A stretch of 64,000 bases of DNA, from contig NIVC01000746.1 of assembly GCA_002269645.1 (NCBI GenBank), positions 1-64,000 of the forward strand. The letters run 5' to 3'. The stretch's first letter is position 1. Each line of letters opens with the position of its first letter. Source of the stretch: Macrostomum lignano. Taxonomy: Eukaryota. Under the pieces are notes generated by a model that did no database searches, was not told the DNA's origin, and saw nothing but the letters and a program-made list of their open reading frames with translations. The position numbers and the translations under genes are program-made. This document shows positions 7,264 to 31,400 of the stretch, piece by piece.

Positions 7264-9300
7264 ATGACACAGGACGCAATGATCGCATCGCCTCAGTACC
7301 AGCAGCAAATGCAGCAGCAGCAACAGCAGCTTCTGCAGCATCAGCACAACCGAGCCAGGCGTAAGTGCCGCAGGTCACGATGTTACAAAGGATCAAAGAC
7401 TGAGGCCGCCATTCAGTTGACATTCAAAGACGCTGATCCTGATCCGTCATCAAATTCTGATGCCCAGGAGCAGCAGCTGATGCCTGGACGGCAAGATTCT
7501 TCCACTGGCCTGGGCCGCCACTGCCGGAAGAGTCAGCTGGATCAGCTGCGGGGCGATCTGGAAAGGCTGGGTCAGCAAATAGCTTCTCTGGCAATGCGAA
7601 ACGGCAACCGCTCCTCCGTAGTGTCTGTAGCGCCTCCACCGCCTCTAATCCCCACGGCCGAACCACCGAGAGCATCGCAGCAGCAGCAGCAGCAGCCGTC
7701 AGTAAACCGTGACCGTGGCGCAAGCGGCAAGGAGCCAAGCGTTTATGATTCGGTGGACGCGTCGGCTAACACAACAACAGCCGTTGTCGGAGCCACTGTT
7801 GAGGGACAGCACTTGAAGAAGGCTGAACTGCGTGTCGCTGGGACCGACATTACAAAAAGCATATCGGACTCTTCTGATCTTGCTTATCAGCGCCAAGAAG
7901 AGGCTGCAGCTGCTGCTTCAGGCCATGGATTATCGTCGCGACGGTACAGGCGCAAAAAGTCACTTGGTGAAGGCGATGAAGCTCCAAATACCGCCATGCT
8001 CAACAGACACGTTGGTTCGTCAAGGCGCCGAGCAAACAATGTCACCAACAACAATAGTCAGCGGGCATTTGACGGTATAGAAAATAACTCCAGTTCAAAG
8101 TCTCTGATCAGTCTTCCGCGCGGTGAAGATCAGCAGCAGCCGGGGACATCAGAGGTTACAACCGAACAGTCGACGGCGCAGAGCGTCACCAGCGGCCGCA
8201 GTCGACGCGGAGGCCTGCTTAGCAATGAAAAGTCGCCATATCGAGACGATTCGGACGGTCACCTGATCTACGCATACGGCGATGTGCTGAAGAATCGCTA
8301 CCGGATCTCAAAAACGCTCGGAGAAGGCACATTTGGCAAAGTGACAGAGTGCGCCGATATGCAGGATTTTGCTCAGCGTCGAGTAGCGGTAAAAATCATA
8401 AAAAATGTGGAAAAGTATCGCGAAGCAGCCAAGCTGGAGATCAACGTGCTGAAGAAGCTGGAGGAAAAAGACCCGTCAGGTCTGCATTTGTGCATAAAGT
8501 TGTTGAGCTGGTTTGAGTTCTATGGCCACATCTGCCTAGTCTTTGACCTTCTTGGCAAGTCTGTGTTCGACTTTCTGAAGGAGAACGACTTTGCGCCATA
8601 TCCGATAGAGCACGTGCGTCACATTGCCTATCAGCTGGTGCACTCAGTGGCCTTCATGCACGCCAACCAGCTGACGCACACGGATCTAAAGCCGGAAAAT
8701 ATTCTGCTTCTTCGGTCGACCTATTCAACCTTTGTTAATCCAAAGCGCAAGAAAGAAGAAAAAATGCTTGATCGAACGGATATCCGGCTAATCGACTTTG
8801 GTTCGGCAACCTTTGATCACGAGCACCACTCTGCCGTGGTGTCCACCCGACACTATCGAGCTCCTGAAGTCATTCTAGAGCTGGGTTGGTCGCAGCCGTG
8901 CGACGTCTGGTCCATCGGATGCATCCTGTTTGAGCTCTACACGGGCTTCACGTTATTCCAGACGCACGAGAATCGCGAACACCTGGCCATGATGGAGCGC
9001 ATACTTGGCCACGTGCCCTACCGCATGACCAGGAACTCCAGGGCCGGCTACTTCTGGCACGGCCGTTTAGACTGGGACTACCATAGCAACGAGGGTCGCT
9101 ACGTGCGCGAGAACTGCAAACCGCTGCATCGTTACATGCGAGACGAGACACCGGACACAAGAGACCTGTTCGACCTGATGCTGCGAATGCTCGAGTACGA
9201 ACCCGAGGACCGCGTCACGCTTAGCGCGGCCTTGGAGCACGCCTTCTTCAAGTCCATCCCGGCAGAGTGGAGCCTGCCGCCAGTGTCTGTGTCCAACTGA
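7264..9300 (+). CDS. CLK: CDC-like (LAMMER) dual-specificity kinase, CLK/Doa family; uninterrupted 678-aa ORF
   Basis: [29 protein letters not shown] and the family signature [11 protein letters not shown]. The frame stays open upstream to a TAG at 7174-7176 that could be a splice acceptor, so the N-terminus may extend. Confidence 0.95.
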
Positions 9301-10483: not shown

Positions 10484-13400
10484 GCTGAGCCAGCAGGGGA
10501 CAGAGGCACCAAGGGAGCAGCAACCAGAGCCACGGAACAGGTGGCCATCATTTTGAGCTATCATTCTGAGCTGCACAGGAAATTCTGCAACGCCTGTATC
10601 AAGGAGGCTGGCGTGATGAAGCAGTACACCGGGAGTCTGTTGGGACACTGCGAGACGGTGCGGAGACTTTTCAAGTTTTTTACAGAAGCTACTGCTATTA
10701 GTAGCTCAGATGTAGCTTCTGTTAAAGCTTGCTCTGGATTGCACTACAGGGATCTGTAGCCTAGTGGTCAGAGCGTCGGACTCACGACTTGAAGGTCGGG
10801 GGTTCGATTCTTGACCCACTCGAAACAATTTGTGTCATTGAGCAAGACACAACTCTGCATTGCTTCAGTTCTCCCAGATGTAAAATGGGTGCCAGCATTA
10901 GCTGGGGTAATTGAGGGTGTGTGTGGCAACCCCCAGTCCTTTGACTGAACAGCCGTACGCGCAATAGCTGCGGCTGAGCTGTCGGTTGCAAATCTGACCC
11001 TATTGGGGCAGGTGTAATCAAATATTATTATTATACTCAACTGTTGATTACATTCGTCACGCAGATCGAGTGCATAGAAGGCTTCTGGCCCAAGAACCAA
11101 GGCCTGGGCGTTCTTCTATTCGAGTGCTCCAAAGAGTGTCAAAAGTGGTTGTACAGCGACCCGGTGTTTAGGGCTAGCGACTTTCTCGAACAGGTGGAAA
11201 TGTACTGCGTGCCGCTGAGCGTTCCACTGCCTCAAGGTGAGCAATGCTACAATTAATTTAATTAGTTCGCTGGAAGCTGGCACCTTCGCTGATCCCGGAA
11301 CACGCACACAGGAGTACGATAAGACTAAAAATGGTGCACAGTGGCTCTGACATTCTATTTTCGTCGTCAGGCATGCAAAAATTACGTGCCTTAGAAGCTG
11401 GCCCTCATGGGCGCGAATCACATGACAAGTCTTACGTCATTCTCCGTGCACTAATCCAAAACGAATGTGGCCCAAAGACTTGAGAATAAAAGTAGTAGGA
11501 AAGTGGTCCCCTCTACCGCCATCGCACGGGATTGGCTGGGGCACCCGGCCAATGAGCGGAGACGGTGCCCCCCAAAGACGCCCACCCCGACCCCAAACCC
11601 ACCACCGCGACGCACCCACCCCGACCCCAAACCCACCACCGCGACGCACCCACTCCGACCCTAAACCCACCACCGCGACGCACCCACCCCGACCCCAAAC
11701 CCACCACCGCCACGCACCCACCCCGACCCCAAACCGGGCCCCCAGAGGCGCCCACCCCGACCCCAAACCCACCACCGCCACGCACCCACCCCAACCCCAA
11801 ACCCACCACCACCACGCACCCACCCCCGATCCCAAACCCACCACCGCCACGCACCCACCACGATCCCCAACCGGGCCCCCTCCTGTCCTGCAGCCCGTGC
11901 ATCCCATACGAAGGCCTCCTCCTATCCTGCACCCCATCCCATATAACAAGGTCCTTTTATCCAATACCCTATCCAAAACCAATGCCCCCTCCTAATTCCT
12001 ATAATTCCTAAACCCCAATCTTATTCCCTGCCTCACTTACCGCCTTTAAGGCTCTAGCCAAGGCAAAACCTTCATTCCATGCTTTGGCTCTACTCTTCCT
12101 TGCTGTGGCGCGTACAGCGTGAGGTCGTTAGACCTAGACCGCTACTTCTTGGTGGCCAGAGGGCCGCAAGAAGGTCCCGCCACCTCCTGTTGTGTGGGGT
12201 TGGATTCGGGGTTCGGATTGGTTATTGCTATGGAGCTGGTTTCTAAATGGCTGAGTGGTCCCCGGAAGGGCTTCTGATTTGCCGAGAGTTCCCGCGAAAG
12301 GGCTGTTGTGTGAGGTTGAATTAGGGGTTCGGATTGGTTATTGCTATGGAGCGGGAGCTGGTGTTGCTCACCAACTCCCGTCGTATATAATCTCGCGCAC
12401 AGCTGGAAGGAAAGCTCAAAGTTTTTGACAGTGAACAAAATGGACTTCAAGACATTATCGAACAGATTTCGAATCGGCGTCAGGTCGCACTCGAAATGCA
12501 TCAGCATCAGAAAGTGGTACAAACTTGGCGAAGAGTATCGACCAGGTCTACCTGGCATGGAGCTCACCGTCCATCAGTTTTGCCACTTGGGCAGCCTGAA
12601 GGAACGACTGGAAGAGTCTGCAAGAAAGTGTATCGATGCGCAATGCCTTCTGGGCGGCAACAGGCAAGTGGTTGTGCAAAATGGCGTAATCACACTCTGG
12701 CGCCTTCCAACTGTACTCGGACCGCCGGGCGCCTAAGGCACGCCTTACCGCTTCCTACTACACTTTGGCGCGAAGTCTGGGCTCAAAAGCAATGGGTCCT
12801 TGACAAAATTGACAAGTGAGAGTCTCCGGTCGAGCCACCGATCGGCGATCCATAGTGGATGGGATACCACCCTACGGAGCCTGAAGAGTGTGAAGCATGG
12901 GCAGCAAGGCTTGCACTCGACCAACTGATGCAAGTACCTGACAGGCAGCCGGCAGAGTGGGAAGACCACTGGGAGGCCTTCCAAGCAGTTCAGGCTGAAT
13001 TTAGAAAGAGATTTACAGCCAACAGCCTTCATGCCACCAGCCACCAATGAAGCGACGCGCAATGCATGAAGCGACAACTGGTCATTTCGTCAATTAACTT
13101 TTTTAATACAGTTTTGAATCATAATACTGATCATGCACTTGTATATATTGCTTTGTCATTACTGACCATAATATTGCCAATAAAAGAAACATAAAAAATG
13201 TTTCATTTTCGTAAGCATTGTTGCACAAACACAATATAGTCGCATTCGCGTTTATTTTTTCTTATCTTTTGTACACAAAAAATACAGAAGTAAAGTTACA
13301 ACAAAAATATTATTATTTTTAATCGGTGCATAGGCAGATCTCACTACTACTGTTATGCTGTAGAGGAGCTCAGATCGAGTCCAGCAAAGTAGGTTCGGAT

Positions 13401-16400
13401 GCTTGGTCTGCATGCAAAATGCGGGTGAGAGCATCAGCTGCAGTCTGAGCCTCAACCACGCTGCGAGCACCGGCTATTATTCAACGATATGAATGAAGCA
13501 AAATCAACTTTACAGAAGCAGTAAACTCGAGCACAAGTCCGTTAAACATTTCCGGCTCATAGGTACCCCGATGCGGCCATTTAGACTTGACTTCCCCCAA
13601 CCGGAGTGGATGCCGACTCGCGGGAAAGGCCGTCACAGAGGTACCAGTATGTAATAGTCTTGATGCGAATCTGGGGCAGACTGGTCAATCGCAAGAAGTC
13701 CGCACACAGCCTCACAATCTTCTCCGTCTCTGCGAGAGCCTCCTCCAGGCTTTTGGCTCCACAGACAGACACTTGTCCGATAGGATACACCAGCGCGGTT
13801 ACTCGATGCTGCCTGCTCTTCATCACCACTGCCAGTGTTCGAGGATGAACCAGGCGATGGCGGATTGTGTGATGCTGAGGCAGATGAAGAGTCATGAAAT
13901 TCGCTAGTTGTGGCAGACCCACCCGGGTCGCCAGATCGGCTCCTGTCACGATGTTTGTCACGCGAATTGTTGCGACCATCTTTAGACAATCGAGAGAAAC
14001 GCCAGTGCCTGCTGCAGATCGTTACTTTTATAGACCCGTAGCCGCGAGGCCGCAGCCAATCAGCGTACAGCGTCACCTTGTCCAGGGCGCAGGGTAGCAC
14101 GTACTTTGAGGCACTCGGAAAGGCCAGGTGTGCTAGGTCGTAGACAGGCTGTAGCAGCAGACGCGATAGGAACTGGCACTTGACGTCCCCTTTGCTGAAT
14201 ATCGGGCCTTGCAAGTGAGAGATATCGCTCCAGAGACAAGAGTAGGGTCGGAACCCACTCCTGTCCCAGTCTAGACCGTGCCGCTTATTGGTGAGCCAGT
14301 AGCAGGTTCGTCGCTGTCCTCTATCAAAGAGCTCAAAACTGTGCGGCGGCCGGTAGCAATAGTAATGAGCCGTCGTTTGACCGCATGCAAACTCAACCCA
14401 TGCAATTTCCTTAATCACAAAGTCTTCTGTTTTGTAGAGGTGCGGAAATCCTTCAAAATCAATGACAATCATCTTGGCCACTTGATCCACTTGCCGTATC
14501 CTTTCTGAGACTGAGTCTTCTTATAGTCTTGCAGTCGAGGTTTTTTAGGACTGGACTTTTCTTCCCGAGGCTTTTCCAGCAATTTTGTAGTGTTCAGACC
14601 AACTGCAGACAGGTACGTGGTTTTCTTGAAGACACGTAACAAACTCATTAATCCCATTCGGGGGCTGAAGGTACTTAGAGTACGTATCTTTAACTATGAA
14701 ATGCAGCAGGTCCACGATATTTGAGTTGTACAACGGTTTACCATTGACAGAAACTTCATATATATAATCTATGCTAATCGACTTGCACTTTACGGTTATG
14801 AAGGTAATCAATGCCTGCAGACGATGATGCCATTTCTGATTCACCGTCAGATATAACATCTCCTTCCACTGCAGTTCTTTGTGAATTACTGGAGACTGTT
14901 CTTGGGTCGCACTTGCCTGCAGCTGCTGCACACAACGCTCGTCTCTAATCTTGCGCAACTGTTTTTCCGCCTCTAGCTCGGGTTCACAGACTGTCTCCAT
15001 GCCCCTCTGATTCACAAGTGCCTCATACTGCAACCGGGGCACCATTATCATTTTCTTGTACATGTCTTTTTATACAAGTGAGAATCAGAGGAAGACAACG
15101 AAGGATATGCGCGTGTGAGAGATTGCGCCGAGCCTCTTTCACACTTTTGCTTTGTGCAACAAGCCGGAGAGTATTTCGATATCGCCTGCGTCTCCGCTTC
15201 AAGCTATCTTCACAACCAACTTTTCCTGCTAGTAAGTTGATAATACACTCGACAAAAAAGCAAATGGTGCTTTTATTTGCATAGGTAAGTATGCAGCGAC
15301 GCAAGGATATAGTGCCTTCACAAAAGACAGTTATTAGTGCAAAGTGTTTATCCATGTTTAACTCAGTGCAGAGACTGGGCGATTCTTACAGATAAACTCG
15401 CTGCGGGGCCTCATCGGGGAGAAAATTGGCTCTCAGGCGCAGTTCATGGGGTGAAGCGGGGTGAAAATCAAGCAGCAGATAGCGCTGATCTCCATCTCGC
15501 ACCAATCGATCCATCAGTTCTACTAGCAGAGTGAGCCGTTTGGGAAAGCATTGCTGACTTAAAGCTTGGACCGCAGAGGTGTCTCTGGGGTTGTTGAAAA
15601 ACAGCATGTAGGTGCAATTTATGCTAATTGTGCGCCACTCTCTGCCTTTGAAAAATAGATTTGGCGTGATGAGAATGACAAAGCAGGGCTTGTGGTGGGC
15701 CTCACGGGTGAACAGGTGTCGTAGCTCTCGACTTGCAGCTGCTTCATCCAGTAAATCATCAATCACAATCAGGTCATGGGGCTGCAGATCCAAATTCGAT
15801 AATCCTTCACATACTTGCACTCCTAGCCGCCGCAGAGTCGCGTGGAGTTCCGGCTGCGGGCATCCGTGATACCAAATCATCCGCTTGGGAGGTTGGTCGA
15901 ACAGAAGCAGTCGTTGGGACAGCAGCCGCAAACAGAATGTTGATTTTCCCGCTCGAGAAGGGCCCGAAACCATCATGCAGCTGCCTATCCGCAGTCTGGA
16001 ATCAAACACCTTGCAACTGATTTTTGAGTCTGAGTATGATTGCATCGTTTTGAGCCACAGCTGCCGGATGCAAGGCCTTGATGAACAAGGCATTATAAGA
16101 CATTCTCTTATGTAGTCGATGGATCAAGTAAAAAATGCAATACCAGCCGCAAAGAGTTGACGAACTGGGCTGAACAGGGACCGTATTCCATTGTAGCACC
16201 ATCCGCGTTGGTTTAGTTTTCTTTAACCAGCTCTTCATATTTTTACTCAAGCCTCTCAAAGACTTGAAAATTTCACAATGCACTTTACTGGTTGCTACTC
16301 CAGCAATCCAGTGACCGCACTCATCATTCCATGGCTCATACAAAATGAAGCAGCAGTGCATTGCTGGAGTACGTAACAAGTCATTGTAGCGGCCAGCTGG

Positions 16401-19400
16401 AATTTCAGCACATTGCATTGAACCCTCAAGCTGATAATATAGCGACAATGGATGAGAGATCGTGTAGATGCAGTTGATAAAAACTGATTCCAAGCAGAGC
16501 CAACTCATAATCCAAAGCAGAATCCAGCAGCACAGGATGAAGCAGCTCAGCAGTAAAGTTGGCCGGGTCATCATCGGGGCCGGACATTACCTGAAATCTT
16601 TGCCTTTTCATATTTTTGTTAAGTTTTTTACGTCAATCCAACTGGGTTTTTCTGAGTCGCGCCACTGAACCAAATACCGAATCTTTCCACTATTCAGCTT
16701 CTCAATGTTGAGAACCTTGTCAATGGTCCACAGCTTCTTGTTTCCAATCACTTGCTGCATTTCCGGCTCGTAAAACTTGCCTTGGGGTGGAGGGACTCGA
16801 TTTCAAATACTTCCTCACTCCATCCCCTTGTGTATCCCTTGGTGAATGGGTTGGTCGGATTGCGAAGAGAGATTCGCACCATCATTCCTGCCTTGAACTT
16901 TGGTCTGGAGACCTTTTCACGAGTCTCAGGAAGCTTCCCATCATAGAGCCGGTGCCAAATTTTCATCTCGTTTGACTTGTTGACATCAACTGGTCGGCTT
17001 TGAATACTCCGATAAATACTCTGGTTGTATGCCTTTACTAGGGGCTTAAGCACATCGGTCCAGGTTAATGTTGACTTGTGACGAAAGTACCGCCACATTC
17101 GGGATTTCAGTGTGTGGTTCCATCTCTCAATGACTGCGCATTTCTGGTCACTGCTTGACGTGAATGCATGCATTTTCTGGTTTACGCAGAGGGCTCGGAA
17201 CTGGATGTTACAAAACTCTTTTCCGCGGTCGGTCCGAACTGCTCGTGGGCATCGAGGGTGAGCTCGATTTAGGATCGCTTCGAATCCGGCTGCAACTTCC
17301 TCGGCTGTCTTGCGGCGCACCGGCTGAGCCCAGGCAAATTTGCTGAGCACATCGATGCAACATAGAATATATCGTACGCCGCCACTGTACTTGGCAAACG
17401 GCAGCATTTCAACCAGGTCCAGTTCCCACTGGTCATCCATGCCCCGCACCACAATCGGTGCTCGACGAAAGTTTTTGCGTTTATCTCTATGCAGTGTGTA
17501 GACATCTTGGTCTCGGAGCCACGTCTGTATCTTTAATTGAAAGTAATGTTAAAACTGGAAATTGCTAGCATTAAAATACATGCATTTCAATGGGAATTTT
17601 TACCCAAGTGTGTGCACGAAAAACCTCGACACTTTGCATACTATTTAACACTGTGCACGAAAACTTACATACTCGTGCACAAAGTACATGCATTTCAATG
17701 GGGATTTTAACCCAGACCTGTGCACAAAAATGACTCATTATGGTAAAAATATTAATGTGAAAGAACATTTTTCTCTCCTGCAGTGTACCAGATATCATTG
17801 AGTAAAGCTAAGCATGTATTTATTATTATTCAAAATATAGTATGTTCGTATTAAATTTACATGCATATAGTTGTTTAAAATCAGATATTTGCAAAGAAAA
17901 ATTTTATGGTGAGAAAACGAGCTTGCTAGTGTCCAGACAGATCGCACTGGCCGATATACACTAGCCTGTCGAGCACAACATTCGTCTTGAGAATGTGCAC
18001 TAGAACTAAATCCCCGTTGAAAATCATCTGCTCGCGGAACGCTGGCTTGGCCACAGGCTTTCCTGCTGAATTAACCAGCCGGTAGTCCACTTGCTTGCGA
18101 ACATTCTCCAGGGTCTTTCCAAACAGGGGGTTGTTTAGCAGCTTGTTGCAGTCTTTCTTGAACTCATTCTTAGCCTTTTGCACGATGCTCCATGCGGTAG
18201 ATAATAAACAGCGGTCGACACGTCAACACACCGAGTGGTCCTGATTATCCAGCCACTGCCATTGCGTAGGTACTTCTCTATCCGGTTGAGGATAGTCTGC
18301 ATGTCGTCAGAGAAGTAGTGCTCCTACTCACTCCGAATAAGAGAGTGGATCTTGGCAGCAAACCAGGCGGTGTTCTCGGCGGCGCAGCTTCCATTAATGA
18401 TGCGCTGCATCAGGACCCCGAGGCGCAGCTGAACCTTGATGGCGGTTCCTGGCTCACGTTGATGCTGGGTGATCAAGTCAATGAAAGCTTGACGAGAGTT
18501 TTCCAAAACGTTCCTCGCGTCGCCGCATGCACTGGCCCGGTAAAGTCGGGACCTGCCATCAAACGCCTCCTTGATCAGTTGAAAATGAATCGTTTGGGGA
18601 GTCATCTGACTTAAATAGTGCTGGTATCGCAGGACATACCGCATAGTGCTCCTCAATGCCCCCGATTACTGATGACTCGCAAAAGTCGCAAGTTATTTGC
18701 ATTTTTGTTGTATGTTCAATTTAATCTAAAATAAAAAAATCTACACTGAGTCCCGGGTGCTTCGCTTATAAAGGGTCCTGAACCCCAGCTCCTGCGGGGC
18801 GTGTTGACCAACCAAATCGTGCATCAGGGACCTCTCGACCAATAGAACCCCTTCTCCACATTACTCGGCAATTCCGAGGAAATCACTTCTAAATGCTTGC
18901 TCGACCAATAGAATCTCTTTCCCTCTCTACTAGGAAATTCCAAGCAATCGGACCCTCTACCCGTTGACCGATCACACTGAAACTCTGTCTTGCGTGTCAC
19001 CACCAATGGACACTCATTCACAACTCGATACCCACTCTTGGACACTCACTTAACTCACCCTTGGACACTCACCCAGACACTCAGCTGCCCAACCCCTCCT
19101 CTGGCCTGCTCGACCGGCCTGCCCGACCCCCACCTTTGGCCTGCTCGACCCCATCCTTGACCTGCTCGACCCCATCATTGACCTGCTCGACCCCATCCCT
19201 GGGCCTGCCCCACCCCTACCTCCGGCCTGTCCCGCCCGCCTCCGGGGCCTCCTCATCGCTGATTGACTCCCCCTCGCTGATTGGCCAGCCATTCATTGGT
19301 ATGGATGCACGGGGTGCAGGACAGGAGGGGGGCTTGGTTTGGGATGGGGTGCAGGACAGGAGGGGCCCGGTTTGGGGTCGGGGGTGGGTGCGTGGCGGTG

Positions 19401-19848
19401 GTGGGTTTGGGGTCGGGTGGGGGTCTTTGGGGGGCCGTCTCCCCGTATTGGCCGGGTGGCCGGCCAATCCCGTGCGATGGCGGTAGAGGGGACCACTTTC
19501 CTACTACTAATAAAGATTGCAACTAGACTCATTCAACGTCCATACCGGTAGACTACCCAAGAGTTTCAATACCACACTATTCGAAGAGTCTCCTAAATTT
19601 AACGCATGAATTGATATAACTTCCAGGTTACGCAGTCTTGTCCATCATGAACTTGGACGTGCAGTTCAAAGAGATCTTCAACGGCGAATATCTTAAGCGA
19701 CACGAGGATGGCGTGCGCAGCTGCCAGGGGATTCCATGCGTTGCCATCACCGACAAGGTGCAGAAGGTGAAAGGGATGCGAAATCCCAAGTACTTCATTG
19801 TTGACGCGTGGAAATGCCGTCAAGACTTCGACGCCTGGTACAAGGCAG
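10484..19848 (+). CDS. Spliced host gene with two DUF1330-like repeats; exons 10484-10657, 11065-11236, 19627-19848 (possible upstream exon ending 10051; 3' end unresolved)
   Basis: AG/GT boundaries are phase-compatible (0, then 1). The joined translation gives KQYTGSLLGHCETIECIEGFWPKNQGLGVLLFECSKECQKWLYSD and a second unit GYAVLSI...DKVQKVKG..PKYFIVDAW....FDAWY, resembling the DUF1330 pattern (kyGGrfl..vevlEG.wp..vvvieF.s...A.aWy.S). Family call by eye. Confidence 0.65.
10749..11035 (+). mobile_element. tRNA-derived CORE-like SINE, family 1 copy A
   Basis: A box TAGCCTAGTGG (10757), B box GGTTCGATTC (10801), central segment GTGTCATTGAGCAAGACAC...CTTCAGTT...TGTAAAATGGG resembling the MIR CORE, (ATT)n tail; similar copies at 30786 and 38840. 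Confidence 0.8.
11491..11940 (+). repeat. Left terminal inverted repeat, with about 9 copies of a 34-bp GC-rich unit
   Basis: 11491-11536 is the exact reverse complement of 19463-19508; unit CCCCGACCCCAAACCCACCACCGCGACGCACCCA is tandem over ~11580-11875. Confidence 0.9.
12208..12395 (+). promoter_or_regulatory. Putative Pol II promoter of the PC4-like gene
   Basis: Direct repeat GGGGTTCGGATTGGTTATTGCTATGGAGC (~12208 and ~12323), each with an inverted CCAAT; TATATAA at ~12385, about 55 bp upstream of the ATG at 12440. Confidence 0.5.
12440..12819 (+). CDS. PC4/Sub1-like ssDNA-binding protein, probably two tandem PC4 domains with a frameshift near 12700-12735
   Basis: ISIRKWY..GEEYRPGLPGMELTVHQFCHL aligns with PC4 [28 protein letters not shown]. 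A second unit LGGNRQVVV..GVITLWR continues in another frame as ALPLPTTLWREV....VLDKID (stop 12819). Confidence 0.7.
12859..13050 (+). CDS. Small Polinton ORF of unknown function (63 aa, Trp-rich and acidic)
   Basis: ATG ORF directly after the PC4-like gene, followed by an AATAAA near 13179 in the AT-rich convergent terminator zone. Confidence 0.35.
   Translation: MGYHPTEPEECEAWAARLALDQLMQVPDRQPAEWEDHWEAFQAVQAEFRKRFTANSLHATSHQ
13370..13979 (-). pseudogene. TATA-binding-protein-like gene (both TBP repeats), disrupted by one frameshift (~13645-13660) and an in-frame TGA (13481-13483)
   Basis: Repeat 1: NIVTGADL...AVVMKSRQHRVTALVYPIGQVSVCGAKSLEE (TBP NIVSTVNL...[30 protein letters not shown]). 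Repeat 2, read by hand in the +1 frame: PLRLGEV...TYEPEMFNGLVL...LILLHSYR*IIAGARSVVEA...LTRIL (TBP PIRLEGL...SYEPELFPGLIY...LLIFVSGKVVLTGAKVRAE...IYPIL). Confidence 0.85.
13633..14490 (-). CDS. DEDD/DnaQ-like (Maelstrom-like) nuclease-fold protein; conserved part is about the first 145 aa
   Basis: IVIDFEGF, VIKEIA, YRPP.SF, RTCYWLT..HGLDW..G..PY, IFSKG..K.QFL, VYDL, CALDKV..YADWL match a motif series I recognise from Polinton-type ORFs. The remainder is low-complexity read-through over the TBP gene. Confidence 0.6.
   Translation of the reverse strand: MDQVAKMIVIDFEGFPHLYKTEDFVIKEIAWVEFACGQTTAHYYCYRPPHSFELFDRGQRRTCYWLTNKRHGLDWDRSGFRPYSCLWSDISHLQGPIFSKGDVKCQFLSRLLLQPVYDLAHLAFPSASKYVLPCALDKVTLYADWLRPRGYGSIKVTICSRHWRFSRLSKDGRNNSRDKHRDRSRSGDPGGSATTSEFHDSSSASASHNPPSPGSSSNTGSGDEEQAASSNRAGVSYRTSVCLWSQKPGGGSRRDGEDCEAVCGLLAIDQSAPDSHQDYYILVPL
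14025..14066 (-). promoter_or_regulatory. Putative TATA + CCAAT promoter of the TBP-like gene
   Basis: Minus-strand TATAAAAG at 14032-14025, about 46 bp upstream of ATG 13979; a CCAAT box at ~14058-14062 lies within the ADWL codons of the upstream ORF. Confidence 0.6.
14545..15063 (-). CDS. Conserved Polinton hypothetical protein
   Basis: EVSVNGKPLYNSNIVDLLHFIV...PPNGINEFVTCLQENHVP matches the recurrent Polinton motif G(S)NIVDL...P.G..EF...L...NVP. Confidence 0.65.
   Translation of the reverse strand: MYKKMIMVPRLQYEALVNQRGMETVCEPELEAEKQLRKIRDERCVQQLQASATQEQSPVIHKELQWKEMLYLTVNQKWHHRLQALITFITVKCKSISIDYIYEVSVNGKPLYNSNIVDLLHFIVKDTYSKYLQPPNGINEFVTCLQENHVPVCSWSEHYKIAGKASGRKVQS
15023..15355 (-). 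CDS. Small basic Polinton/adintovirus protein next to the ATPase (cupiennin-like)
   Basis: RRCILTYANKSTICFFVECIINLLAGKV...KRRRRRYRNTLRLVA resembles the conserved R.AIL..A...LI..I.EC..N.L.G.V...K..L...K..LR.LA pattern; located directly downstream of the ATPase. Confidence 0.6.
   Translation of the reverse strand: MDKHFALITVFCEGTISLRRCILTYANKSTICFFVECIINLLAGKVGCEDSLKRRRRRYRNTLRLVAQSKSVKEARRNLSHAHILRCLPLILTCIKRHVQENDNGAPVAV
15386..16093 (-). CDS. A32/FtsK-like genome-packaging ATPase (likely start MQSY at 16045)
   Basis: Walker A GPSRAGKST, Walker B LIVIDDL, FTREAHH, RTISINCTY..FNNPRD and YLLLDF.P, all typical of Polinton ATPases; ORF intact. Confidence 0.92.
   Translation of the reverse strand: MPCSSRPCIRQLWLKTMQSYSDSKISCKVFDSRLRIGSCMMVSGPSRAGKSTFCLRLLSQRLLLFDQPPKRMIWYHGCPQPELHATLRRLGVQVCEGLSNLDLQPHDLIVIDDLLDEAAASRELRHLFTREAHHKPCFVILITPNLFFKGREWRTISINCTYMLFFNNPRDTSAVQALSQQCFPKRLTLLVELMDRLVRDGDQRYLLLDFHPASPHELRLRANFLPDEAPQRVYL
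16002..16475 (-). pseudogene. Adenain-like capsid maturation cysteine protease, N-terminus fused to the penton remnant
   Basis: GHW, EIFKS (usually EYFDS) and QPSSSTLCGWYCIFYL motifs; no native start survives because homology begins at the deletion junction. Confidence 0.8.
16476..16611 (-). pseudogene. N-terminal ~45 aa of the minor capsid (penton) protein
   Basis: ANFTAELLHPVLLDSALDYELALLGISFY matches the Polinton penton start (ANFT..L..P..L...YEVAL..I.Y); its ATG overlaps the integrase stop (ATGA, 16608-16611). Confidence 0.7.
16608..17535 (-). pseudogene. Retroviral-like (c-)integrase with C-terminal chromodomain; 5'-truncated, with a frameshifting deletion near 16785
   Basis: WLRDQDVYTLHR, DDE triad in WELDL / TDRGKEF / VIERWN, KGYTRGWSEE. 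After the shift another frame reads GKFYEPEMQQV...WTIDKVL...RYLVQWRD...SWID to the stop at 16608. Confidence 0.92.
17940..18656 (-). pseudogene. Protein-primed family B DNA polymerase (pPolB), heavily deleted
   Basis: N-terminal region reads through a TAG (18324-18326) into ILNRIEKYLRNGSGW...YYLPHGAS, then jumps directly to the motif B region KNEFKKDCNKLLNNPLFGKTLENVRK...KT.V.LD..VYIG. Exonuclease, motif A and motif C are absent. Confidence 0.85.
19290..19508 (-). repeat. Right terminal inverted repeat
   Basis: Reverse complement matches the left end exactly for 46 bp and imperfectly beyond that, with only 1-2 copies of the 34-bp unit. Confidence 0.9.
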
Positions 19849-28488: not shown

Positions 28489-31400
28489 ATGGAATCAGTT
28501 GGCGAGTTCGAATACTCCACAAGAGAGCTGATTGGTCACGGCGCCTTCGCCCTGGTTTACAAAGGCCGGCACAGGGTGTCGCAGCATCGCAAAGTGGCCA
28601 TCAAAGTTATTCAGAAAAAGAATCTGGCCAAATCGCAGAATCTATTGAGCAAGGAGATAAAAATTCTGAAAGAGCTGAGCACTCTCAAGCACGATAATGT
28701 GGTTGGCCTGTTGGATTGTATTGAAACTGGGGATCGGGTGTTTCTGGTCATGGAATACTGCAATGGCGGCGACCTGGCTGGCTATCTGATGGACAAGAAG
28801 ACATTGTCTGAGGACACCATCCGGCATTTTCTGCGCCAGATCGCCAGGGCTATGCAAGCTCTGGCCAGTAGGCAGGTGGTGCACCGCGACATGAAGCCGC
28901 ATAACTTCTTATTGAACTGGCCAGAGCCAATCTGGACCAGCTTGGAGAACGCTATCAGTCCCAGGGAGAAGTACCCACCGGCGCATCAGATCTCCATTAA
29001 AATAGCCGATTTCGGCTTTGCCAGGTTAGCAGTGGCTTGGAGGGATTAATTAGTAATGTCATCTTACTTCTGACACATCAGAATCTTGATCTGACACATC
29101 AGAATCTTGAATCTGGCACATCAGAATCTTGGATCTGACACATCAGAATCTTTGATCTGACACATCAGAATCTTGTATCTGACACATCAGCATCTTGAAT
29201 CTGACACATCAGAATCTTGTATCTGACACATCAGAATCTTGGATCTGACACATCAGAATCTTGGATCTGACACAGAATCTTGGATCTGACACATCAAAAT
29301 CTTAGATCTGATACATCAGAATCTTTTGTCTGACACATCAGAATCTTTGATCTGACACATCAGAATCTTTTGTCTGACACATCAGAATCTTGAATCTGGC
29401 ACATCAGAATCTTTGATCTGACACATCAGAATCTTGGATTTGACACATCAGAATCTTTGATCTGACACATCAGAATCTTGGATCAGACACATCAGAATCT
29501 TGGATCAGACACATCAGAATCTTGGATCTGACACATCAGAATCTTGGATCTGACACAGAATCTTTTGTCTGACACATCAGAATCTTGTATCTGACACTCA
29601 GATTCCCATACTACGTCGCAACCCAAATCCCCGCAGGTTCCTAGCAGACGGCAAGATGGCGGGCACCCTATGCGGCAGTCCGATGTACATGGCGCCAGAG
29701 GTGCTGATGTCCTGGAACTACGACAGCAAAGCGGACCTGTGGTCCATCGGCACCATTGTGTACCAGTGCCTCACTGGCACCGCGCCATTTCATGCTAACA
29801 CGCCGCAGGCGTTGAAAGATTTCTACGAACGGAACGTCAACCTGCGACCGCGGGTGCCGCCGAACACCTCGCCGGAGCTGACCGACCTGCTGCTGCGGAT
29901 CCTGCGCCGCAATCCGGCAGACCGGATCAGCTTCGAGGACTTCTACCAGCATCAGTTCCTGTCCCTGGCACCCGCCTCTGCTGTACCCATGCCGCTGCAG
30001 CGGAAAGCGTCTCAGGGCGATAATCTCAAGCTGCTGTCGGCGTCGCCGCTGTCTGAGGCTTCGCCACCTTTGCTTCAACAGCAGCAGCAGCTCCAGCAAC
30101 AGCATCGGCGACCGCTGCCGCCAACTCCGACTGCTTCAAGTCAGCGCCAGCAGCCGCGGAAGCAGCAACAGCAGCAGCCGGCACCGGCCGGGGCTCCCGC
30201 CGCCGAGCCTGGCCACGACTTCGTGCTGATTGGCCAGGACGGGGCCGAGGAGCCGCCAGTTGCCGGTGCCGCCGCCGCCGCCCGCCTGTTCCAAGCCGCT
30301 TCCGGTAGCGGTAGCATTGAACGGTCGAGAAATCTGCTTCGGCCGTCGCCTTCGCCTTCGCCTCCGCCCCCTACTGGCTCGACGGCGACGGCGCCTGCTG
30401 GAACAGCGCCTGCTTCTGCGGCTGCTGCTGGAACTGTGGCCAGGGCGGTGCCAACCTCGCCTGGTGACAGGGGCAGCAGTAAAGACCTGGTCGCTGGCGG
30501 ATTCGATTTGGCTAAGATGTCGCCTCCGCAGGTTTGTGTCTTTGCTATGCTACTTTTATAGTAATTGCATGAGTTTGCTAGAGGATTTTACGTCTAGGAT
30601 TTTGCTAGACGACTGTTGAGTCACGAGGGCATCACGTGACTTGTAAAAGAAATGCAAATGCAAAAAAAAGCCGTCCGAGAGTCTTTGTGTCAGCGCTTAA
30701 CTGTCTACTAACTCAAGTAGACTCAAATGCGAAATGCGAGATTTCATTGCATATCACGTCTCATATCTGCTACAAAGCACAACATGATAGCCCTGTGATT
30801 GGAGCGTCGGACTCACGACTTGAAGGTCGGGGTTCGATTTCCGATCCCACTGGGACAATCTGTGTCCTTGAGCAAGACACTTAACTCTGTGTTGCTTCAG
30901 TTCACCCAGCTGTAAAATGGGTGCCAGCATTAGCTGGGGTAATTGAGGATGTGTGGCGACCCCCCAGTACTTGGACTGAACAGCCGTACGCAGCCTTCAG
31001 ATGCGCCGCGCAAATAGCTGCGGCTGAGCTGTCAGTTGCACATTTGGCCCGATTGGGACAGGTGTAATTAAAAAAAACACTAGCCCTACTCTCTACGCAC
31101 TACTCAATCATGAGTAGTTCATTCCGCACATTCACCGAGTTGCCCTGCCGCCATCTGCCCGGTCTCGCCCAGGTCCAGTTCAGCTTGGAACGTCGCCGAC
31201 GACGTCGCGGAGATTCCGGCGGCAGCGGCTCGCCGGCGTCGCTGGCTGGCCTCGCTGATGTCGGCGGATTCGGCGAGGCCTCGCCGCCGCCCAGCTCGCT
31301 GGTGCCGTTCTACATGGCCGCTGCTGCCGCCGCCTCCGCGCCTGGCAACCTGGACGCCTCGGGCGCCGCTGCTGGCGACGCCGACGCCGATGACTACGAC

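Follow-up and report, generated by a model that had tools for sequence, protein, structure and literature searches.

Gene organization and sequence relationships

The 64 000-nucleotide stretch of the Macrostomum lignano genome analyzed here (assembly GCA_002269645.1, contig NIVC01000746.1, positions 1–64 000 of the forward strand; hereafter the window) contains an 8.0 kb Polinton insertion, spanning positions 11491–19508, which carries a gene with two consecutive PC4/Sub1-type units in a single chain. This tandem PC4-type gene is real and well supported, and it is broken in the window. Its ATG frame at 12440 is 98 residues long in the window and begins at unit 1, with the N-terminal Ser/acidic and Lys-rich region of eukaryotic PC4 being absent. 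A frame-changing gap near 12729, within unit 2, separates the window from 28 of its 29 sister copies, and translated alignment with an unbroken copy shifts frame at 12727/12733. Three further breaks follow: stop codons at 12817 and 12853, and another gap that changes the frame, near 13018. Of the 29 copies one, L002, has these forms too; its flank agrees with that of the window, and it represents one and the same insertion. In view of these four breaks, the window copy is a dead pseudogene that is unable to make the tandem protein. A DNA search of the same genome with the gene gave at least 68 matches at no fewer than 30 loci, that of the window among them. Eight of the 29 other copies keep an open frame of 225 residues or more from the same start, typically 231 as in the unbroken copies, and the gene end is therefore placed at 13097.

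Unit 1 matches the Pfam PC4 family (PF02229) with an E value of 2.7e-4 and a score of 20.8 bits, short of the curated cut-off (25), which is exceeded by relatives from two other lineages of the gene (B and C, described below; 32.6 and 26.0 bits, respectively). In the PDB, a profile of nine sequences finds MoSub1 at E = 2e-6 and human PC4 at E = 8.9e-5. The original prediction had recognized unit 1 as a PC4 C-terminal domain and a second unit spanning a frameshift, and both features are borne out; it had ended the gene at 12819, short of a further conserved helical module. This Trp-rich module of ∼55 residues follows an acidic linker, is common to lineages A (that of the window) and C and is modeled as helices with pLDDT near 90; scans of profile libraries gave no family match for it. 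The tail of lineage B differs from the A/C module, and a basic patch closes most of the two-unit proteins.

Predicted fold of the two units

The model of unit 1 superimposes on human PC4 at an r.m.s.d. of 1.3 Å over 63 residues. In the structure models both units show a β4-α fold, and the two repeats pack in one chain as in Pur-alpha repeats I–II; the whole-model alignment hints at a helix swap between them. The models suggest that, within one chain, a pair of PC4 units folds into what cellular PC4 builds as a homodimer. Several results weigh against this assignment, mostly for unit 2, which has no Pfam match in any of 12 members, shows similarity to unit 1 at only P = 0.086, scores above all of 1000 shuffles for just two of five cellular PC4 domains and gives weak profile matches to the PDB (E = 0.68 and 1.4); in addition, neither model had a Foldseek match in the PDB at E ≤ 0.001. 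Unit 2 is recognized mainly by its predicted fold. The single-chain, pre-assembled pseudo-dimer proposed in the original prediction is supported for the family by two structure models and fold searches, and does not extend to the broken window copy.

The two halves are not equivalent. The DNA-contact residues of PC4 were taken from PMC4350104, which lists R70, F77, R86, W89, R100 and K101 among those compared here, and were mapped through profile registers and column counts over 20 sequences, i.e. by alignment and not by superposition. Unit 1 retains R86 (19/20), an aromatic residue at W89 (20/20), K97 (19/20) and an aromatic residue at F77 (11/20), and unit 2 retains R70 (20/20) and R100 (19/20). 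Either half taken singly departs from the PC4 surface: unit 1 has an aromatic residue at R70 (18/20) and no basic residue at R100/K101, and unit 2 has proline at W89 (20/20), Lys/Arg at R86 in only ten of the 20 sequences and a shorter F77 hairpin. The contact set is divided between the halves and is complete in neither, and the two may perhaps form one composite DNA channel.

Lineages and gene context

Of 163 candidates in G000, 150 were scored with the Pfam PC4 profile, and 30 loci, followed by 20 longer stretches, were examined. Three candidates are the ordinary single-unit PC4 of the host; the other examined candidates are the two-unit gene, whole or broken, which falls into three lineages (A, B and C). 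In lineage A the gene lies at the element terminus and converges on a TBP-like gene. In lineage B it also lies at the terminus, and in 14 of 15 stretches the integrase follows directly downstream; a TBP-like gene is on the same strand ∼7.4 kb away in eight of the 15 (the remaining stretches stop short or are interrupted), and the polymerase converges on the TBP-like gene in all five extensions. Lineage C comprises six loci and 14 stretches; a type-B polymerase of a different kind lies nearby in five and a dUTPase in five, and at one of the loci the downstream 8.5 kb were covered. Profiles from lineages A and B gave no TBP-like, integrase, ATPase or capsid match in lineage C, where a distant capsid could escape them; the TBP-like profile recovers eight of eight lineage B controls. 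Nor is there a clear match in lineage C to the DEDD-nuclease-like open reading frame (ORF) found in the window (best E = 0.047). Since lineage C has a polymerase nearby and no TBP-like match, the constant partner of the two-unit gene is a polymerase and not TBP. Beyond this genome the finds were eight proteins plus two near-duplicates and a single contig; each sits on a record shorter than 2.6 kb and lacks context.

Some further arrangements were seen among these stretches. In five pairs (L076+L089, L077+L090, L079+L092, L082+L095 and L096+L097) there is a second kind of polymerase element, often nested or rearranged, with a type-B polymerase, a dUTPase, a two-unit PC4 gene and two unnamed ORFs, in which no integrase or capsid was detected. 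L075 (G000:C1753) has five PC4 matches on one contig, three of them ∼3.4 kb apart, possibly a tandem array of a lineage C fragment. Between lineages A and B the block from integrase to TBP-like gene has opposite orientations with respect to the PC4 gene and polymerase. Seven stretches contain a short inverted repeat that has ends like those of Polintons and a spacer of 17 bases; this could be either a hairpin or an end-to-end junction.

Comparison with known PC4-like proteins

The C-terminal domain of human PC4 and fungal Sub1 (PF02229, a type II homodimer) is a sequence homologue of unit 1, and both units share its fold. The Polinton protein differs from these in being one chain rather than two, in its asymmetric halves, in the absence of the N-terminal Ser/Lys region and in its extra C-terminal module. 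For the PC4-like domains of type I (Pur-alpha repeats I–II, Whirly and MRP1/2; PMC7549692), identity is 8–14% and no sequence homology was detected, whereas the Polinton unit derives from PC4/Sub1 itself. Two PC4 domains per chain are also present in bay scallop PC4s, two of whose genes (Arg0233380.1 and Arg0244310.1) are single-exon and which are reported as a host expansion (PMC9223095), and in the cellular-looking PC4–PC4–DEK_C proteins P0010 and P0011; in all of these both domains are recognizable by profile, unlike unit 2 of the Polinton protein. The PC4 homologue of phage T5 (PDB 4bg7) is virus-encoded and implicated in DNA replication, as proposed here for the Polinton protein, but is a single unit that forms a homodimer in a bacterial virus.

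The best fold match in BFVD is MOSUB of the Branchiostoma lancelet adintovirus (A0A5H3CIS2; E = 7.5e-5, TMq = 0.62), a Sub1/PC4-like gene in a Polinton-type element, like the window family; it is only 15% identical to that family and was compared by fold match. As a single PC4 chain reaches a TMq of ∼0.45, MOSUB probably also has two units. A protein of Drosophila-associated adintovirus 2 has the same TMq of 0.62 with E = 0.031. The labels MOSUB and SSDBP come from Supplementary Fig. S2 of Starrett et al. (2021; PMC8502044); the main text does not mention MOSUB, Sub1 or single-stranded DNA (ssDNA), and the parts consulted give neither a tandem fold nor a function, on which the slide supplements and tables may say more. 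Single-chain PC4-like folds are likewise an established, named class (PMC7549692). The novelty implied by the original prediction was therefore overstated, and the two-unit gene belongs to a labeled but uncharacterized kind of Polinton gene. The literature searched, as far as accessible and with subscription journals excluded (PMC11071308, PMC11131425, 10.1101/2023.08.22.554363, 10.1101/697771 and PMC11662393), contains no description of tandem PC4 in Polintons and does not address protection of the displaced strands in protein-primed Polinton replication. What we add is the single-chain asymmetric fold, the link to polymerases rather than to TBP and an idea about the PC4 expansion of bivalves.

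Functional implications

We favor, with moderate confidence, the view that the gene family encodes the element's own ssDNA-binding, duplex-destabilizing protein for protein-primed strand-displacement replication. Other protein-primed replicons have ssDNA-binding proteins (PMC8276246), and the phage T5 PC4 points the same way (PMC7549692). Homology, selection, gene context and the predicted fold are results for the family; ssDNA binding and the replicative role, a plausible part of the original prediction that we prefer, are predicted from homology, fold and context. With two units in one chain folding as the equivalent of the PC4 homodimer, the halves, freed from symmetry, could have diverged while retaining complementary parts of the DNA-binding surface, perhaps leaving one full binding channel. 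The protein would then cover the strand that the protein-primed polymerase displaces, or assist in opening the termini, and the acidic linker, helical module and basic tail might serve protein contacts and nuclear import. Against the replicative role it must be counted that a shared fold is no proof of function, as Pur and MRP proteins also bind RNA, and that the TBP-like gene is also carried by lineages A and B.

The last point bears on a role as a transcription cofactor, in which the protein would act with the element's TBP-like protein to open or stabilize melted promoters for host RNA polymerase II. Retention of both genes in lineages A and B despite rearrangement favors this role, which we nevertheless regard as rather unlikely: adjacency to TBP is not conserved, lineage C has no TBP-like match and the N-terminal regulatory region of PC4 (domain scheme in PMC9600219) is absent. 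The original prediction had drawn on the gene being the only plus-strand unit and converging on TBP. Within the window Polinton this is indeed the only plus-strand gene found, and it converges on the TBP-like gene; the argument is weak, given the same-strand arrangement of lineage B and the lack of a TBP-like match in lineage C. The position directly upstream of the integrase in lineage B, and beside the terminus in A and B, would instead suit a helper of annealing or recombination (during excision, pairing of the terminal repeats or in repair intermediates), as opposed to an SSB (ssDNA-binding protein) of elongation, and PC4-like folds unwind or match strands (PMC7549692); with lineage C having the gene and no integrase match nearby, we judge this improbable. 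Least probable of all, in our estimate, is an RNA-binding or anti-silencing accessory protein acting with the neighboring DEDD-like ORF. The type I relatives Pur-alpha and MRP1/2 bind RNA (PMC7549692) and MOSUB adjoins MAEL in a label row of Starrett's map (PMC8502044), but unit 1 is closest to PC4/Sub1, a DNA binder, and the DEDD-like match in lineage C is unclear.

For replication, the small element-encoded PC4 pseudo-dimer, well folded in models, is a concrete candidate for the protector of displaced strands. It also illustrates the change from homodimeric PC4 to an asymmetric single-chain domain, the route proposed for the Pur and Whirly folds. We suggest only tentatively that animal Polintons repeatedly use an asymmetric single-chain PC4 pseudo-dimer with a composite channel as replicative SSB, and that the intronless two-domain PC4 'expansion' of bivalves is Polinton cargo and not stress genes. 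The Polinton gene also carries a warning for invertebrate genomes: supernumerary 'PC4 genes' there may belong to mobile elements.

Other features of the Polinton and its surroundings

Terminal inverted repeats with (AGT)n ends and a 6 bp target-site duplication are hallmarks of Polinton/Maverick elements. Both are seen in the window insertion, where the termini are (AGT)n and the 6 bp target duplication is exact (Table 1). A sister copy of ∼14.35 kb in G000:C1978 has its own target duplication. Compared with this longer copy, the window Polinton is a deleted element that lacks the presumed major capsid ORF and retains little of the presumed minor capsid or of the polymerase; the capsid ORFs (457 and 267 residues, respectively) are named by position and size only and have no Pfam match. 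The type-B polymerase and retroviral-type integrase are present in sister copies and are remnants in the window, where the integrase, TBP-like gene and ATPase are still recognizable.

Table 1. Features of the Polinton insertion in window coordinates
Feature	Position	Strand	Evidence
Left 6 bp target-site duplication	11485..11490		Identical to 19509–19514
Left terminal inverted repeat region	11491..12426	+	(AGT)n terminus, 34 bp tandem repeats; matches right end of longer copy up to 12426
PC4/Sub1 unit 1, residues 1–62, frame open	12440..12625	+	Pfam PC4 E 2.7e-4; PDB profile matches; model
PC4-like unit 2, residues 63–126, frame change near 12729	12626..12817	+	Fold of unbroken sister copy
Linker, Trp-rich helical module and basic tail, same gene	12818..13097	+	Unbroken copies; helices in model
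Putative polyadenylation-signal hexamer 3′ of PC4 gene	13179..13184	+	Motif scan only
TBP-like gene, broken near 13650 and by stop	13376–13979	-	Pfam TBP E 1.4e-8
Conserved ORF, DEDD-nuclease-like start	13966..14475	-	Label by eye; no Pfam, PHROGs or NCBIfam match
Packaging-type ATPase	15389..16123	-	Weak AAA matches
Cysteine protease remnant	16005..16412	-	Weak C48/C5 matches in sister copy
Retroviral-type integrase, frame-broken	16611..17542	-	Pfam rve E 2.1e-11
Protein-primed type-B polymerase region, remnants	17944..18690	-	Pfam DNA_pol_B_2 in sister copy
Right inverted repeat ending at 19508, plus target-site duplication	19303..19514		Duplication identical to 11485–11490

A second polyadenylation hexamer from the motif scan, on the minus strand at 13251, faces that of the PC4 gene. 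The TBP-like genes of two Polinton lineages are 34–38% identical (alignment A5), and their first repeat looks less close to TBP than their second; TBP labels are also placed on non-animal MELD viruses by Starrett et al. (PMC8502044). The DEDD-like ORF and TBP-like gene share one 379-residue frame in L033:2223-3359, G000:C5126 and C862, and mostly overlap in different frames. In the left terminal region, 34 bp tandem repeats and a direct repeat with 116 bp spacing occupy 11547–11895 and 12187–12355, and their copy number varies among copies of the element. Host protein kinase genes flank the Polinton at 7264–9300, a long uninterrupted frame, and at 28489–29049.
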